This document shows, in pieces, positions 6,725-46,261 of a stretch of DNA of 60,733 nt. Source of the DNA: Candidatus Nomurabacteria bacterium RIFCSPHIGHO2_01_FULL_40_20. Lineage in GTDB: Bacteria; Patescibacteriota; Minisyncoccia; Phycocordibacterales; UBA9973. The notes under the pieces were generated by a model that saw only the letters and a list, made by a program, of their open reading frames with translations, was not told where the DNA came from and ran no database searches. The position numbers and the translations under genes were made by a program. Positions within the stretch are counted from its first letter, which is position 1. Each line of letters opens with the position of its first letter. Location of the stretch: NCBI GenBank assembly GCA_001786835.1, contig MFTO01000005.1, positions 1-60,733 on the forward strand, in the 5' to 3' direction.

Positions 6725-6773
6725 CCCCAGTACTACATTAATTTGCCGAATGCGCAAATTACTGAGTACGGGG
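6725..6773. repeat. Imperfect hairpin CCCCAGTACT...AGTACGGGG with inner stem AATTTGC/GCAAATT
   Basis: Read directly in the ruvA/rpsT divergent spacer. Same clamp type as 42373-42402 and 59106-59169. Confidence 0.7.
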
Positions 6774-6836
6774 CGGGGAGTAAGAGTTTCGATTTATTAC
6801 CATTTATAATTTTATTTTAATTTCGATTTAAAGACT

Positions 6837-37568: not shown

Positions 37569-37606
37569 AAAATAAAAACCTAGATTTTAGTCGAGGTTTT
37601 TATTTT
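37569..37606. terminator. Perfect 13-bp hairpin flanked by A and T runs (bidirectional terminator candidate)
   Basis: AAAATAAAAACCT-(12 nt)-AGGTTTTTATTTT. Confidence 0.75.
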
Positions 37607-37655
37607 GCCTTTATTAGTCTGGCCTTGAAGAGAGTGGCGTAGGCGTCGTTTGGGT
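37600..37655 (-). pseudogene. Degenerate duplicate of the 3' end of rpmB (L28)
   Basis: Aligns to 38263-38320 with most positions identical by eye. The reverse strand reads ...NDAYATLFKARLIKAK* against the genuine ...NGAYATLLKAGLIKAK*. Confidence 0.75.
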
Positions 37656-38262: not shown

Positions 38263-38514
38263 TTATTTTGCCTTGATTAGTCCAGCTTTGAGGAGGGTGG
38301 CGTAGGCGCCGTTTTTTTTGATAGTGCGCATTCCGCGAGAGGAGACTTCAATGTTTACAGATTTTCCGAGTTCCACCACAAAAATCTTCTTCTTTTGAAG
38401 ATTTGGGTATTTGCGGGACTTGCCGGTAGGGTTAAATTTGGTCGCGCGAGTCCTGTTGGAGTATCCGCCTCCGACAATTGAACCCTTTTTTGTAATTTCA
38501 CATATTTTCGCCAT
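38263..38514 (-). CDS. rpmB: 50S ribosomal protein L28
   Basis: MAKICEITKKGSIVGGGYSNRTRATKFNPTGKSRKYPNLQKKKI. Confidence 0.9.
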   Translation of the reverse strand: MAKICEITKKGSIVGGGYSNRTRATKFNPTGKSRKYPNLQKKKIFVVELGKSVNIEVSSRGMRTIKKNGAYATLLKAGLIKAK

Positions 38515-40188: not shown

Positions 40189-42354
40189 ATGGAACGAGAT
40201 TACCCATTAGAGAAAGTTAGAAATTTTGGAATTATCGCTCACATTGATGCGGGCAAGACTACCACGACCGAGCGCGTGCTTTTTTATACTGGTGTTTCTC
40301 ACAAAATAGGCGAGGTGCATGATGGCGAAACCACGACCGACTGGATGGAGCAAGAGCGCGAGCGGGGGATTACTATCACTTCTGCGGCAGTTACTTGTTT
40401 CTGGACGCCTACTTATGATTTGACCAACAAGGCACTCAAGCATCGTTTTAATATTATTGATACCCCAGGGCACATTGATTTTACAGTGGAAGTAAAACGC
40501 TCACTCCGTGTGCTCGACGGCGCGGTGGTGGTGTTTGACGGCGTGGCCGGAGTAGAACCGCAATCAGAAACCAACTGGCGCTATGCGGATGAAGCGAGTG
40601 TGCCGAGAATATGTTTTATCAACAAGCTCGACCGCACTGGCGCATCTTTTGAACATTCCTACAAAACTATTTTAGAGCGTCTTTCCAAAAAAGCAGTCCG
40701 GGTGCAAATACCTATCGGGCTTGAAGAGCATTTTGAAGGAGTAGTGGACCTACTTCGGATGAAGGCGTACTATTTTGAAGGGGATATGGGGAATCTTGTG
40801 ATAGAGAAAGACCTGACTGCGCAGGCAGGAATTCCTGAAAATATAATAAAAGACGCGGAAAAATATCACAACGAATTAATTGAAAAAATTGTGGAACAAG
40901 ATGATACGTTGATGACCGAATACTTGGATGGTAAAATTCCTGATTTTGATACTTTAAAGAAATTATTGCGCAAGGGAGTGATAACCAATGAAATTTTTCC
41001 GGTCTTTGCGGGCTCGGCGCTAAAAAATAAAGGAGTCCAGCTTGTGCTCGACGCTGTGGTGGACTATTTACCGGCGCCGACCGATATTCCTCCGATTACT
41101 GGCATTGACCCAAATACTGATGCTCCGGTGGTGCGCCATGCGTCAGACACGGAGCCATTTTCCGCGCTTGCTTTCAAGGTAGCGACCGACCCATTCGTGG
41201 GTCAACTAATTTTCTTTCGAGTTTATTCCGGAACACTGGAAGCCGGAAGCTATGTTTATAATCCTCGCACAAGAAGCAAAGAGAGAATCGGGCGAATACT
41301 TCGTATGCATGCCAACGACCGCGAAGAAGTGAAAAAAGTTTTCGCCGGAGAAATTGCCGCAGCCGTGGGACTCAAAGAAACTATTACTTCCGACACTCTT
41401 TGTGATGAAGCGCATGAGGTAGAGTTAGACCGAATAGTTTTCCCGGAACCGGTCATCTCGTTACGTATTGAACCAAAGACAAAAGCCGACCAAGAGAAAA
41501 TGGGTATGGCGCTCAACCGTCTTGCCCAAGAAGACCCTACCTTTAAAGTCTCAACCGACCAAGAAACAGGCGAGACTATTATTGCCGGCATGGGAGAGCT
41601 TCACTTGGAAATTATTGTAGACCGTATGAAGAGAGAATTCACGGTGGAAGCAAACGTAGGCAAACCGCAAGTGGCGTACCGAGAAACCATTACAGGGTCT
41701 GCGGATGCCGAAGGCAAATATATCAAACAGTCCGGCGGACGTGGAAACTACGGGCACGTGAAGATAAAAGTAAAACCAATGACAATTTTGACTAAAGAAG
41801 AAATAGAAGACTTGCCGAAGAATACCAAACGCTCTCTAGGTTTTGAGTTCATTAACAACATCAAAGGAGGTGTCATTCCACAAGAATACATCGCTCCTTG
41901 TGAAAAAGGATTCAAGGAAGGACTGGACCGCGGAATTTTGGCTGGATTCAAAATGGTAAATGTATCTGTTGACCTATGGGACGGAAGTTATCACGAAGTG
42001 GACTCAAATGAAATGGCATTCAAGATTGCAGCTTCTATGGCGGTGCAAGATGCATGTCGAAATGCAAAACCCGTGATACTTGAGCCGATGATGAAAGTGG
42101 AAGTAGTGACACCGGACAAATTTATGGGAGACGTAACTGGAAACCTTTCATCTAAGCGCGGACTTATTGACGGCATGGAAGAGCGGGGAATGAATAAAGT
42201 AATCAAAGCTATTGTTCCGCTATCAGAAATGTTTGGCTACATGACTGGACTGCGCTCTATGACCGAAGGTCGTGCGTCTTTCACTATGGAATTCTTGCGC
42301 TACGATATAGTACCCCAGAATGTTGCGGAGACGATAATATCGGCGCGAAAGTAA
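40189..42354 (+). CDS. fusA: Elongation factor G
   Basis: [34 protein letters not shown]; 721 aa. Confidence 0.98.
40812..40829. repeat. Near-palindrome CCTGACTGCGCAGGCAGG inside fusA, encoding LTAQAG
   Basis: One mismatch relative to the copies in uvrC and ruvA. Confidence 0.85.
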
Positions 42355-42372
42355 CTAGCCTAAAAATGCCTG

Positions 42373-42402
42373 CCCCGTAGCGAGCTTGCTCTGTTACTGG
42401 GG
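42373..42402. repeat. Imperfect hairpin CCCCGTAGCGAGC-tt-GCTCTGTTACTGGGG between the fusA stop and the duplicated fusA end
   Basis: Read directly; same CCCC..GTA/TAC..GGGG clamp as 6725-6773. Confidence 0.7.
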
Positions 42403-42434
42403 TGGCTGAAACCATCATCTCTGCGAGGAAGTAA
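42402..42434 (+). pseudogene. Second, out-of-frame copy of the last 10 codons plus stop of fusA ([10 protein letters not shown])
   Basis: GTGGCTGAAACCATCATCTCTGCGAGGAAGTAA against 42322-42354 GTTGCGGAGACGATAATATCGGCGCGAAAGTAA: 9 nt differences, all synonymous. Confidence 0.8.
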
Positions 42435-42477
42435 TTTTTTAATTTACTATACTAGGAAATAGTGATAAGCTTTTTAT

Positions 42478-43506
42478 ATGTCGCTTATTAAACTCCCAGG
42501 GCTTATTGATGTGCATGTGCACTTGCGCGAGCCGGGGGCTACTCATAAAGAAGATTTTTATACGGGCAGTCGCGCGGCGCTTGCCGGGGGGTTTACTTAT
42601 ATTTTGGATATGCCGAACAACCTTATTCCTACCATAACAGCCGAGCTTTTGGAAGAAAAAATTTCTCTTTCAAAAGAAAAATCTGTCTGCGATATTGGAT
42701 TTCATTTTGGCACTAACGGAGAAAATACAGAAGAGTTTGAAAAAGTAAAAAACAATCCAAAAGTTTTTGGCTTGAAAATTTATTGCAATCACACTACCGG
42801 CGAGATGCTGATTGAGAATTTAGAATTGCTTGAAAAAGTTTTCTCCGCTTGGGATTCACCCAAGCCAATTTTGGTACATGCTGAAGGAGAACAGTTGGTA
42901 ACTACTCTCGCTCTCGCTCTTAAATATGAAAGAGTGCTTCATGTGTGTCACATTTCACAGAAGAGCGAAGTAGAACTAATTAGAAAAGCAAAAGCAAGTT
43001 CTCAAAAAGTTTCAGCCGGAGTTTGCCCACACCATTTATATTTTACCAAAGATGCAGTTTCAAAAATGAAAGGTTATGCCATGATGAAACCCCCCCTAGG
43101 TACTCAGGAAGACCAAGATGCGCTTTGGGCAGGACTTTCTGATGGAACAATTGATCTTATTGAATCCGACCATGCTCCGCATGTAAAACTTGAAAAGAAT
43201 CCGCCAGCTGGCGGACAGCCAGCGTTTGGTGTGCCGGGTCTTGAAACTACTTTAGGACTTATGTTCAAAGCAGTTCACGACGGGCGAATTAGCAAAGAAG
43301 ATGTGGTAAGACTTTTATACACTAATCCGAAAAAGATTTTCAACATTCCCGACCAACCGGACACTTATATAGAATTAGATCCTGATTTAGCTTATGTTGT
43401 TCCACAAAAAGGTTTTGAGACGAAATGTGATTGGTCGCCATTTTCGGGGATGACGCTTTATGGTAAAGTGCAAGCAGTGGTATTGCGAGGCAAAAAAGTT
43501 TTATGA
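42478..43506 (+). CDS. pyrC: Dihydroorotase (short form)
   Basis: GLIDVHVHLREPG, ESDHAPH; followed by pyrD/E/F. Confidence 0.85.
   Translation: MSLIKLPGLIDVHVHLREPGATHKEDFYTGSRAALAGGFTYILDMPNNLIPTITAELLEEKISLSKEKSVCDIGFHFGTNGENTEEFEKVKNNPKVFGLKIYCNHTTGEMLIENLELLEKVFSAWDSPKPILVHAEGEQLVTTLALALKYERVLHVCHISQKSEVELIRKAKASSQKVSAGVCPHHLYFTKDAVSKMKGYAMMKPPLGTQEDQDALWAGLSDGTIDLIESDHAPHVKLEKNPPAGGQPAFGVPGLETTLGLMFKAVHDGRISKEDVVRLLYTNPKKIFNIPDQPDTYIELDPDLAYVVPQKGFETKCDWSPFSGMTLYGKVQAVVLRGKKVL
43200..43215. repeat. 16-nt perfect palindrome TCCGCCAGCTGGCGGA inside pyrC, encoding (N)PPAGG
   Basis: Identical to 20467-20482. Confidence 0.9.
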
Positions 43507-44576
43507 AATACGAACCATTTTACAATCCGGAAATTTCTTACGAAGAGAATTTTGAGAAAGGTCCATATGGAGTTTTTGCCGATGGAGAAATATTGTCAAC
43601 CTCGCAGGTTGACAAGTTTTATGATTTTTTGGGTTTAAAAGTAAATTCACTTTTTGGGATTCCGGCGGGACCGTTAATCAACAGTAATTTTTGCAAAAGC
43701 GCATTTCAAAAAAGTTTTGATATTTGTGTATATAAAACAGTTCGCTCCGCTATTTTCCCATGTCATCCGTTCCCAAATGTTTTGGCGGTAAAAGTTGAAG
43801 GCGATTTAACCTATGAAAAAGCGCAAAATAAATTAGTGGCTGATAATAATTATTCCGAACCAATTTCCATTACCAACTCCTTCGGTGTGCCTTCTAGAGA
43901 CCCAAAAATTTGGCAGGAAGATGTAAAGAAAGCAATTTCGTATGCAAGTGTGGGGCAGATACTTGTTTTGAGTTTCATGGGGACAGTGCGAGAACATCAA
44001 ACCAAAGAAGAGTTTATTGCCGACTATGCGCTTACGGCCAAGCAGGCGATTGCGACAGGAGCGAAAATTTTAGAAACCAATTTATCTTGTCCCAACATCG
44101 GCAACGAGGGGTTGGTTTGTTACGATTTAGAAATGACTGAAAAAGTTTGTAAAGCTATCAGAGACGAAATAGGAAACACCCCTCTTGTTTTGAAAGTCGG
44201 TTATTATAAAGAAGACAGCGACATAAAAAAATTAGCAGAAATTGCAGAAAAATATGCGCAGGCAATATCATCTATAAATACAATATCCGCAGAAGTAGTG
44301 GATAAAAACGGGAATCAAGCCTTGCCCGGCAAAAACAGACTTCGTTCCGGAGTTTGTGGAGCGGGAATCAAATGGGCGGGCTTGGATATGGTGAAGAGAC
44401 TAAAGCAGGCTAGAGAAGAAGCAGGAGGAAATTTCCGAATAATAGGAGTGGGTGGAGTTATGACGGCAGAAGACTATGAAGAATACAAAGACGCTGGCGC
44501 AGATGTTGTGATGTCGGCAACAGGTGCCATGTGGAACCCTTATCTTGCGAAGGAGATAAAGGAAAAGCTATCATAA
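43503..44576 (+). CDS. pyrD: Dihydroorotate dehydrogenase-like flavoprotein
   Basis: TIM-barrel DHOD motifs (FGIPAGP, NLSCPN, GVGGV); position in the pyr cluster. Confidence 0.75.
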   Translation: MKYEPFYNPEISYEENFEKGPYGVFADGEILSTSQVDKFYDFLGLKVNSLFGIPAGPLINSNFCKSAFQKSFDICVYKTVRSAIFPCHPFPNVLAVKVEGDLTYEKAQNKLVADNNYSEPISITNSFGVPSRDPKIWQEDVKKAISYASVGQILVLSFMGTVREHQTKEEFIADYALTAKQAIATGAKILETNLSCPNIGNEGLVCYDLEMTEKVCKAIRDEIGNTPLVLKVGYYKEDSDIKKLAEIAEKYAQAISSINTISAEVVDKNGNQALPGKNRLRSGVCGAGIKWAGLDMVKRLKQAREEAGGNFRIIGVGGVMTAEDYEEYKDAGADVVMSATGAMWNPYLAKEIKEKLS

Positions 44577-44581
44577 CTTAC

Positions 44582-45211
44582 ATGAGCGAAGTATTAGATA
44601 TTTTAAAAAAAGTGGGTGCAGTTCTCACAAACGATCATTTTGTGGGCACATCTGGACTCCATTTTGATACTTATGTGAACAAAGATTTTTTATATCCACA
44701 CACAGCAGAAACTTCGGAAATATGCAGACTTTACGCAGAAAAATATAAAGATAAAGATATTGAGGTTGTAGTAGGTCCAGCTCTCGGCGGGATAATTCTT
44801 TCCCAATGGGTGGCATACCATTTGAGCGAGATTTATGAAAAAGAAGTATTGGGGATATATACGGAGAAAAATTCGGAAGGCAACCAATTTTTTAACAGAG
44901 GTTATGATTCTTATGTAAAAGGCAAAAGGGTGCTTGTAGTGGAAGACAATGCGGTTACTGGTGGCTCGGTGATGAAGGTTATTAACGCAGTGAAGGGTGC
45001 AGGGGGAGAAATAGTTGGAGCGTGCGTAATGGTTAATAAAGATACGGAAAAAGTAAATTCTGAAACCCTGGGAGTGCCTTTTGAAGCCTTAAGTGAATTG
45101 CCGGTAACTGTTTATTCAGCGGAAGATTGTCCACTTTGCAAAAATGGAGTTCCCATTAACACAAAAATAGGTCACGGAAAGAAATTTCTAGAATCAAGAG
45201 CCGCGCTTTAG
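44582..45211 (+). CDS. pyrE: Orotate phosphoribosyltransferase
   Basis: PRPP-binding VLVVEDNAVTGGS. Start chosen at 44582, just after the pyrD stop. Confidence 0.85.
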   Translation: MSEVLDILKKVGAVLTNDHFVGTSGLHFDTYVNKDFLYPHTAETSEICRLYAEKYKDKDIEVVVGPALGGIILSQWVAYHLSEIYEKEVLGIYTEKNSEGNQFFNRGYDSYVKGKRVLVVEDNAVTGGSVMKVINAVKGAGGEIVGACVMVNKDTEKVNSETLGVPFEALSELPVTVYSAEDCPLCKNGVPINTKIGHGKKFLESRAAL

Positions 45212-45247
45212 TGGACGGTTGCGCGGCATGATTTCGCTAAATCAAAT
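45200..45247 (+). promoter_or_regulatory. Conserved module: 7-bp GC stem (GCCGCGC/GCGCGGC) plus ATGATTTCGCTAAATCAAAT, immediately upstream of pyrF
   Basis: Second copy at 51178-51222 with compensatory stem changes (ATCGCGC/GCGCGAT). Confidence 0.65.
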
Positions 45248-45250
45248 AAA

Positions 45251-46054
45251 ATGAGTATTATAGATAAATACAACAAAAGAGCGAAAGTTATAAATTCACT
45301 TTTGTGCGTGGGGCTGGACGCAGATTTTGAAAAAATTCCAAAAAAGTTTTTGGATATGGGAAATCCCCAATTTGAATTCAATAAGTGGATTATAGAGGAG
45401 ACGTACGAATATGCTTCTGCATTTAAGCCAAACATTGCATTCTACGAAGCGCGGGGCGACCAAGGAATCCGTGAACTAAAGATGACGATGGAGTATTTGA
45501 TAAAAAACCATCCGGATATTTTTACTATCTGCGATTGCAAGCGAGCCGATATCGGCAACACTAATCAGGGTTATGTTGACTCTTTGTTTGATTGGTTTGG
45601 TTTTGATGCCATAACAATCCATCCATACTTAGGCAGTGAAACGCTCAAGCCATTTTTGGAACGGACAGACAAAGGTTCTATTATTTTATGCCGGACATCA
45701 AATCCCGGTGCGGGGGAATTACAAGATTTATTGGTTGACGGGAAACCACTTTGGCAAATTGTGGCAGAAAAAGTTTCAAATGAGTGGAATAAAAATAATA
45801 ATTGTATGCTGGTAGTTGGGGCAACGTATCCCGAAGAAATGAAAAAGATTCGTGCCATCGTAGGCGACATGACTTTTCTAGTCCCCGGCATCGGTGCCCA
45901 AGGCGGAAGTGTGGAAGAAATAATGAAAGTTGGACTAAACAGCCAAGGTCTAGGACTTATCATCAGTTCTTCCCGAGGAATTATTTTTTCCGAGAATCCC
46001 AAAGAAGAGGCCAAAAAACTCTGCGAAGAGATAAGAAGAAATAGGGGAGTTTGA
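45251..46054 (+). CDS. pyrF: Orotidine 5'-phosphate decarboxylase
   Basis: LCVGLD, DCKRADIGNT, PGIGAQGG. Confidence 0.9.
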   Translation: MSIIDKYNKRAKVINSLLCVGLDADFEKIPKKFLDMGNPQFEFNKWIIEETYEYASAFKPNIAFYEARGDQGIRELKMTMEYLIKNHPDIFTICDCKRADIGNTNQGYVDSLFDWFGFDAITIHPYLGSETLKPFLERTDKGSIILCRTSNPGAGELQDLLVDGKPLWQIVAEKVSNEWNKNNNCMLVVGATYPEEMKKIRAIVGDMTFLVPGIGAQGGSVEEIMKVGLNSQGLGLIISSSRGIIFSENPKEEAKKLCEEIRRNRGV

Positions 46055-46078
46055 CAAAAAAATTCAATCTGCTATTAT
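46051..46078 (+). promoter_or_regulatory. Promoter TTGACA-N16-TATTAT upstream of tuf, implying a leader of about 180 nt
   Basis: Read directly; overlaps the pyrF stop codon. Confidence 0.55.
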
Positions 46079-46138
46079 CTAAATAACTGCACTTTGGCAG
46101 TTTTTCTGTTGCCAAATCAGCATTTTATTAAAAGTTTA

Positions 46139-46178
46139 TCCCGACGCGAAGTCGGGACTCCGACCGGAAGCGTCGGAG
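46139..46178. repeat. Tandem double hairpin of the CCGAC/GTCGG family in the tuf leader
   Basis: TCCCGAC-gcgaa-GTCGGGA then CTCCGAC-cggaagc-GTCGGAG. Confidence 0.85.
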
Positions 46179-46239
46179 CTAATCAATTAGTATTTAGGCC
46201 TTAGCAACTGGTTCTCGTATGCTGGGTCTTAGATAGTAA

Positions 46240-46255
46240 TCCGCCAACTGGCGGA
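46240..46255. repeat. Intergenic copy (one mismatch) of the CCGCCAGCTGGCGG palindrome: TCCGCCAACTGGCGGA
   Basis: Ends 6 nt before the tuf ATG. Confidence 0.8.
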
Positions 46256-46261
46256 AAAAAT

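Follow-up and report, generated by a model that had tools for sequence, protein, structure and literature searches.

The stretch of DNA analyzed here (the window) comprises positions 1–60,733 of contig MFTO01000005.1 of Candidatus Nomurabacteria bacterium RIFCSPHIGHO2_01_FULL_40_20, a genome of 0.55 Mb represented by a fragmented, metagenome-type assembly of 21 contigs that is 78% complete. This genome is designated G000 below; other G numbers denote genomes of the same genus and L numbers denote extracted loci. The window carries the gene fusA, encoding EF-G. In the list of open reading frames (ORFs) it occupies positions 40189–42354 of the plus strand and specifies 721 amino acids, and the C-terminal 199 residues of its product are 86–92% identical to those of fusA in 22 same-genus genomes. 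The analysis of its 3′ end revealed that the last ten codons and the stop codon are present twice, separated by a short hairpin that belongs to a repeat family.

The ORF ends in the first copy, GTT GCG GAG ACG ATA ATA TCG GCG CGA AAG TAA, at 42322–42354. The second copy, GTG GCT GAA ACC ATC ATC TCT GCG AGG AAG TAA, occupies 42402–42434 of the same strand; its offset of 80 nt places it out of frame, and it is untranslated. Both copies encode an identical ten-residue peptide: the nine differences between them fall in eight codons and are all synonymous (24 of 33 positions are identical). The original prediction, made from the letters of the window, had described the two copies, their synonymous differences and the position of the second one in these terms, and the sequence agrees. 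No identical run longer than about 6 nt is common to the two copies, as read by eye. When the 300 nt that follow were shuffled 20,000 times, the peptide's first six residues never turned up in any frame, and the two-copy arrangement is not due to chance. In terms of annotation, the true fusA stop is at 42354 and the downstream copy is a relic.

The two copies differ from each other as orthologous ends do, since fusA ends of different species share 19–27 of 33 positions. Together with the cross-species pattern described below, according to which copy 2 was coding until recently, this bears out the earlier view that copy 2 is no drifted junk duplicate. A comparison aimed at deciding which copy matches the lineage was run and proved uninformative, third positions being near saturation between all species.

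The 47 nt between the copies had been described as a segment carrying most of a hairpin. The hairpin is present, CCCCGTAGCGAGC-TT-GCTCTGTTACTGGGG at 42373–42402, and in the predicted fold its outer stem is formed by CCCC (42373–42376) paired with GGGG (42399–42402). Comparison with the repeat family refined the conserved, GC-clamped core to a palindromic element of 34 nt at 42369–42402 (CCTGCCCC...GGGG), which reads ACCCCAGTAACAGAGC-AA-GCTCGCTACGGGGCAGG on the minus strand. This element splits the Val-10 codon, and the first G of copy 2 is common to both. The remainder of the interval, 42355–42368, is no filler: these 14 non-coding nucleotides of the plus strand (CTAGCCTAAAAATG, cf. GTACCCCAGAATG) are a relic, now diverged, of the four codons that come just ahead of Val-10. 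The intact codons, V-P-Q-N, lie directly 5′ of the insertion point at 42310–42321 (plus strand), and the relic was compared with the post-site sequence in nine genomes. The order at the locus is functional end, relic of V-P-x-N plus G, hairpin, and TN-A-E-T-I-I-x-x-R-K-stop; the repeated unit amounts to about 45 nt, with the hairpin inside its downstream copy.

There is no ORF in the 80-nt insert. A template and variable repeat of a diversity-generating retroelement was considered and rejected, as the differences (T/G, G/T, G/A, G/C, A/C, A/C, G/T, C/A and A/G) are not adenine-specific; no reverse transcriptase was found near fusA, whose neighbours are pyr genes. A long-range RNA helix between the copies was treated as chance: its z-score is only −1.15, and by eye G097, the one other carrier inspected for this, is without matching complementarity.

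The fusA junction in other species

The junction was searched for in 212 genus species genomes. A search for the hairpin followed by GTN GCN GAN.. returned eight carriers, and one that started from the stop codon brought in G159 as well. Nine of the 212 genomes, G000 and eight other species, thus have this anatomy with an identical junction codon, and the joint coincides in every case with the outer foot of a repeat-family hairpin. This recurrence is at odds with the explanation preferred originally, namely that two diverged fusA alleles had been joined as a scar of allelic replacement. Neither that scar nor a long allelic replacement is accompanied by a visible conversion tract shared upstream, there being no clear signal among the carriers (+0.02–0.03 identity over the last 60 nt).

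The displaced ends of the carriers have the character of coding sequence. Variation among eight displaced copies affects every one of the ten third positions, and at first and second positions it is confined to codons 7 and 8, codons that are variable among functional fusA ends too. Seven copies keep the frame; in these the displaced stop is retained as TAA or TGA, and there are no violations at conserved codon positions. As third positions of the gene body diverge by 40–55% between carrier species, the preserved coding pattern indicates that each displaced end was coding until recently. Stages of decay are represented by a frameshift in G207 and by an internally deleted displaced copy in G159, so the displaced relic is not maintained. 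G004 was considered as a further decayed case and dropped, since the same small terminator hairpin occurs in G001.

Seven carriers were included in a fusA tree of 28 genomes built on 480 EF-G residues. They are scattered over the tree, with well-supported branches forcing at least four changes of carrier state, and the carrier label shows no clustering (7 changes vs a shuffled mean of 6.5). In the closest pair of carriers, G086 and G192, the gene differs at 19 of 120 positions (~16%) up to 4 nt before the translated end. That end itself differs at 1 of 33 positions, the hairpin at 1 of 35 and the spacer at 3 of 15; the displaced end differs at 5 of 33, four of them third positions, where a neutral rate of 41% would give about 13–14, and the downstream DNA is unalignable.

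The hairpin repeat family and displaced ends at other genes

Six copies of the hairpin are present in G000, with the general form ACCCCG-A-A-nnnAAGC-loop-GCTTnnn-TACGGGGCAGG. The pattern CCCC-N10-40-TACGGGGCAG was found in 66 of 121 sampled genus genomes, in up to 17 copies, and a reversed-pattern control was near zero. One unpublished genome, G076, enters only the genus-wide counts of hairpins and of the Y1 and GIY-YIG genes discussed below, and no specific claim depends on it. A scan of species genomes located the pattern in many Patescibacteria, in assemblies with labels such as Nomurabacteria, Nealsonbacteria, Yanofskybacteria, Kaiserbacteria and Paceibacterota; scattered matches beyond Patescibacteria are, by our estimate, within chance expectation. 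There was no Rfam match in 42200–42560 at E up to 1.

Elements of the family are 31–52 nt long. Alignment of 63 distinct copies revealed conserved ends, ACCCC and TACGGGGCAGG, with GTA within the stem region. The outer arms are invariant and the inner stem is altered on both sides, two of its pairs showing CG/GC/UA/AU swaps. Double-sided changes numbered 60 against 26 in shuffles, none of 500 shuffles reaching so high a value, and 91% of the cells in the alignment were paired, compared with 32–53% when the partner was slid.

A survey of 82 copies from about 35 genomes identified three contexts. Some copies lie in frame within genes (ruvB, tgt, an internal gatB site and leuS), where the sense frame reads [D/N]PE[G/R]K..[S/A]YGAG. 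Others are located 11–30 nt 5′ of the starts of dnaE, lepA, gatB, thrS, mraZ, dnaX, hisS and Zn-ribbon paralogues of ~580 aa, and the third group lies 1–30 nt past stop codons. The ruvB hairpin is at the same position in three species (L067, L101, L128), with inner stems and loops that are wholly different and still paired, which indicates that it has persisted long under structural constraint within a coding region. In tgt of G000 (G000:C13:1753-1873; L057:253-375) two inverted hairpins 51 nt apart are all in frame (..DPEGKQASYGAG..RPAPYQAKGFGSG..), and tgt of G096 has the first of the two copies only. Within the window, the divergent spacer between ruvA and rpsT contains at 6727–6775 a long-loop variant of the clamp (CCCCAGTACTAC..loop..GAGTACGGGGCGGGG), found also before mraZ in G097 and G085. 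It was considered as the left boundary of a hairpin-bounded segment and rejected, there being no displaced end at that place.

At about 14 loci the ACCCC side of the hairpin is directly adjoined by another, diverged copy of a gene's first or last codons, and the gene body is on the GGGGCAGG side. In dnaE of G000 (hairpin at G000:C8:6413-6450; L055:263-302) the order is KPKFVHLH, hairpin, MKPQFIHLH..., with the upstream frame VETKNKPKFVHLH.. crossing the hairpin; in gatB of two genomes it is MANKYYLTIGLEIH, hairpin, MNKYYPTIGLEIH.... In both genes the frame of the old start crosses the hairpin, and its stop codon overlaps the fresh start as ATGA, the kind of arrangement that an essential gene would require in order to tolerate an insertion. 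Displaced 5′ ends were also observed in lepA of G000, where the insert (hairpin at G000:C4:10760-10792; L054:260-294) is wholly in frame and adds 20 residues, in thrS and in five Zn-ribbon paralogues. The displaced start at such 5′-type sites stands in its native operon context, for example 1 nt past the stop of an upstream paralogue. The Zn-ribbon family is multi-copy and often tandem, with products of 580-odd aa in G000. In more than ten genomes the hairpin lies inside the first CQNCK motif, between CQN and CK, and 13–14 nt beyond it come a new ATG and another CQNCK motif (L056, L062, L068, L074, L077, L095, L105, L112, L122, L130, L136). A second 3′ case, L061, has the order YLKRALRK-stop, 7 nt, hairpin, YLKRALKK-stop, with nearly all codons silently different.

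A possible mobile module and its alternatives

The spacers between hairpin and fresh end, 11–16 nt in length, match the gene's own codons across the insertion point. Agreement with the post-site codons was 12/14 for fusA of G097, 11/14 in the Zn-ribbon case, 10/14 for dnaE, 9–10/14 for gatB and 8/14 for fusA of three other carriers; it was weak (7/14) for fusA of G000, and the 30-nt spacer of thrS does not match (2/14). The fusA spacers of all nine carriers can be aligned (..CC.AAYAAYG), and in our own reading of the sequences the Pro codon of the relic is lost or changed in three of the nine. The relic is thus more decayed than the displaced end, which fits an old relic carried by a module beside a young end that belonged to the host.

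Based on these observations we favour the explanation that a non-coding mobile module of ~80 nt, bearing a surrogate gene end, inserted into fusA at its 3′ end, inside the Val-10 codon, and we would give it about an even chance of being correct. An element with a surrogate gene end had been named as the second choice in the original prediction, and it is the reading best supported by the comparison. The module would comprise the surrogate last ten codons with the stop (copy 1), the 14-nt relic and the 34-nt GC-clamped palindrome. Translation would stop in the surrogate copy, and the resident end would be pushed downstream as an untranslated relic; because the surrogate copy ends translation, the insertion would cost the cell nothing.

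Read from end to relic to hairpin, the pieces stand in a circularly permuted order relative to a hairpin-disrupted fusA end (relic, hairpin, end). Since the spacer is a relic, the module is permuted, and from the permuted order we infer that it derives from a hairpin-disrupted allele. It may move, or have moved, by way of a circular or tandem intermediate that opens at the hairpin's outer foot and is then joined to an intact gene at the matching position. Run in reverse, the reaction would remove the module precisely, and the empty fusA site would read ..CAGAAT then GTGGCTGAAACC... The enzyme may be a single-strand nuclease or a recombinase that is specific for the hairpin and works in trans, and the relic, short and fairly constant, points to cutting at a fixed distance from the hairpin's inner foot.

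With more reserve, we propose for Patescibacteria a class of self-rescuing miniature mobile elements, hairpins of 31–52 nt that, on landing close to where an essential gene starts or stops, would travel with a replacement gene end as a permuted module via a circular intermediate. Such elements may enter and leave essential genes without phenotype, 5′ ends being rewired to a coupled leader and restart, under the action of a new hairpin-specific single-strand nuclease or recombinase; this broader proposal is tentative. If the reading as a mobile module is right, a non-coding element of ~80 nt is tolerated in essential genes (those for EF-G, the DNA polymerase III alpha subunit, GatB, ThrS and LepA) at no cost, because it brings along the few codons that it displaces, a strategy with no other known examples than integrative elements of kilobase size and homing-endonuclease genes. 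It would also account for odd duplicated gene ends and N-terminal 'extensions' in annotations of the candidate phyla radiation (CPR), provide a natural marker of recent DNA exchange in unculturable organisms and point to a hairpin-directed enzyme of possible use in single-stranded DNA work.

Several observations weigh against a mobile module. The duplicated segment coincides exactly with start or stop codons, for which the module does not account. Divergence of the module between species is about that of the species themselves (7.8/30 vs 8.2/30), so the case for recent transfer between species, and the statistics for a separate history of the module, come from the single pair G086/G192 and are modest. 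The resemblance of surrogate ends among carriers exceeds that between carriers and non-carriers by a narrow margin only (0.738 vs 0.711). Neither an empty-site allele nor a circle junction was seen, and two exact-match scans of metagenome contigs returned no empty site or sister strain. No flanking duplications were seen at gene-internal copies of the hairpin. No mobilising enzyme was found among the Y1 and small GIY-YIG candidates examined: the Y1 transposase domain PF01797 was not detected in G000 or G054, which have six and eight hairpins, respectively; the hairpin was present at none of six Y1 transposase loci examined; and it was absent within ~1.5 kb of small GIY-YIG genes at 30 loci and at G000:C13:58947-59150.

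PF01797 is present in 87 of the 121 genus genomes, with many of its occurrences in hairpin-free ones, and the Y1 transposase was rejected as the mobiliser, showing neither co-occurrence nor adjacency with the hairpin. Its IS200-like ORFs of ~210–250 aa reach up to 13 copies per 0.5–0.8-Mb genome of the genus. Small GIY-YIG nucleases were rejected too, being abundant yet without an adjacent hairpin; stand-alone ORFs of this type (~85–100 aa) are found in most genus genomes, with up to 11 PF01541 matches per genome. Target-site duplication by insertion was likewise discarded, since internal in-frame copies lack flanking repeats and the fusA copies differ at the species level.

The alternative that survives best, which we nevertheless consider rather unlikely, is capture of cargo. 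The hairpin would have been long resident in the fusA 3′ untranslated region (UTR), and DNA of a relative, from Val-10 onward and including downstream genes, would have been joined at its outer foot, so that copy 1 is resident and copy 2 imported. The interval between fusA and tuf is indeed a hot spot holding 0–6 different genes among relatives, three relatives have cargo between fusA-end repeats, divergence of the module roughly follows that of the host, and DNA past copy 2 is unalignable between carriers. Against this, each of the nine species would have to contain a long stretch of foreign DNA together with another junction, which was not seen, and the carriers are not clustered on the fusA tree. 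Were the relic simply resident 3′ UTR, there would be no reason for its likeness to V-P-x-N. The displaced starts at 5′-type sites stand in native operon context, and the pyr genes past fusA are common to several relatives and so look vertically inherited.

A single rescue event, close to the scar preferred in the original prediction, is unlikely. Here the hairpin would have broken fusA in one ancestor, and a diverged intact end would have been patched upstream by homology-facilitated illegitimate recombination, the product then spreading vertically or by homologous exchange with no mobility of its own. This would explain why the two copies differ at the species level. The spacers of all carriers are homologous, which makes a single origin of the junction likely, and these organisms are probably, as we presume, naturally transformable. 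An ancestral relic should, however, lack a codon pattern at 40–55% third-position divergence, whereas seven of nine are intact with changes only of synonymous or known-variable kinds; the displaced ends of G086 and G192 differ at far fewer positions than neutrality predicts (5/33 vs ~13–14/33), and the patchy distribution would require many precise losses.

Formally, the topology, in which the hairpin occupies the outer of two tandem units, would suit a local tandem duplication at the gene end with subsequent insertion of the hairpin into the spare copy and independent drift, but this is highly doubtful, as eight of ten codons differ, all silently, and an untranslated spare should show non-silent changes and indels. 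Collapse of strain variants during assembly, which the fragmented, incomplete, metagenome-type nature of the assembly might suggest, is very unlikely and the least probable explanation of all, since the architecture and junction recur with different sequences in the assemblies of eight other species and the layout is seen at other genes too.

Known systems and neighbouring gene-end repeats

The proposed module combines features of several known systems. Integrative elements at the 3′ ends of tRNA, tmRNA and protein genes carry a surrogate end in attP; they are kilobases long, encode an integrase and recombine at an identical crossover core. The likeness lies in silent insertion by means of a replacement end, with the original end left downstream as a direct repeat; unlike them, the fusA insert is ~80 nt long and has no ORF, its copies differ in eight of ten codons and there is no identical core. 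IS200/IS605 elements have hairpin-defined ends, move through a circular single-stranded intermediate with seamless excision and no target duplication, and insert beside a short specific sequence. Here, in contrast, there is one hairpin instead of two subterminal ones, no TnpA is linked and a segment of the target gene is carried inside.

The atp6 gene of Allomyces is an example of a homing-endonuclease insert with a duplicated C-terminal segment. Mitochondrial inserts of this kind in fungi, which are free-standing genes, carry duplicated C-terminal segments of atp6 or cob (PMC6279837). Like the fusA module as proposed, they are mobile and lie where an essential gene ends, with a second partial C-terminus downstream, but they encode an endonuclease, whereas the present insert has no ORF and the layout also occurs at 5′ ends with translational re-start.

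Among short palindromes, tagged REPs (short for repetitive extragenic palindromic elements) are imperfect palindromes of 20–40 nt with GTAG or CGTC tags, associated with RAYT transposases (PMC3733652, PMC2817692). Like the present family they have asymmetric conserved ends and moderate copy number, lie past genes and inside replication or repair genes, and are thought to be mobilised in trans via single-stranded hairpins. The hairpin described here is without a terminal GTAG or CGTC tag, ending in ACCCC and GGGGCAGG, and has no linked RAYT; the word 'duplication' is absent from the REP paper text. Rickettsia palindromic elements (RPEs), of ~100–150 bp, and repeats resembling miniature transposable elements with inverted repeats (MITEs) occur in frame in genes (PMC10969869). 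RPEs are likewise short palindromes of a reduced genome that lie in frame in unrelated housekeeping genes (here ruvB, tgt, gatB and leuS) and are kept across species. They differ in size from the 31–52 nt observed here and in host, the present elements being those of Patescibacteria, and the sequences are unrelated; as far as the review states, replacement or displaced gene ends are not described for RPEs (PMC10969869). As to MITEs, the element itself is one palindrome and its internal copies have no flanking repeat, a junction overlap of 1–2 nt being below what can be resolved.

Ssn nucleases, encoded by small single-domain GIY-YIG (cd10448) genes that the repeat flanks, act with NTS/SRM repeats, asymmetric hairpins around important genes; Ssn cleaves single-stranded DNA close to the hairpin and influences natural transformation (Chenal et al. 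2025, PMC11893778). The asymmetric hairpin family around important genes is a shared feature, and by analogy the length of the relic (~7–16 nt) could be determined by cleavage a fixed way from the hairpin, as by an Ssn-like nuclease. The repeat sequence differs, none of 31 small GIY-YIG genes examined has the present hairpin in its flanks, and in the three sections of that paper considered, gene-end duplication is not described for NTS. Overall, in-frame palindromic repeats (RPEs, PMC10969869; intragenic tagged REPs, PMC3733652) and surrogate gene ends (islands of the integrase type, mitochondrial inserts) are already known separately, and a limited literature search found no description of a non-coding hairpin element with a surrogate gene end.

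The gene next to fusA, a pyrC-like amidohydrolase at 42478–43506 of the plus strand (ORF list, Pfam PF01979 and synteny), begins 43 nt past the displaced stop and is the first gene of the variable fusA–tuf interval (window 42435–46260; L033, L034, L035), the hot spot mentioned above. The cargo in this interval is bracketed, without a hairpin, by the last 41, 25 and 12 fusA codons in G008 (a DUF5674 pair), G015 (a ParE-type toxin pair) and G018 (a 472-aa ORF), respectively. Elsewhere in G000, contigs C1, C11, C12, C13 (two sites) and C15 contain at least six further gene-3′-end repeats of 23–40 nt around cassettes of 0.4–0.8 kb. Several of these cassettes are two-gene pairs resembling toxin–antitoxin systems, and one is the DUF5674 pair found past fusA in G008. 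In a shuffled-peptide control the number of gene-3′-end repeats dropped to 1–3 matches vs 17. Within the window, two copies of the rpmB 3′ end (minus strand) lie at 37600–37651 and 38263–38314, with 44 of 52 positions identical, flanking a small brnTA cassette; the outer copy has two amino-acid changes, and this end repeat is real.

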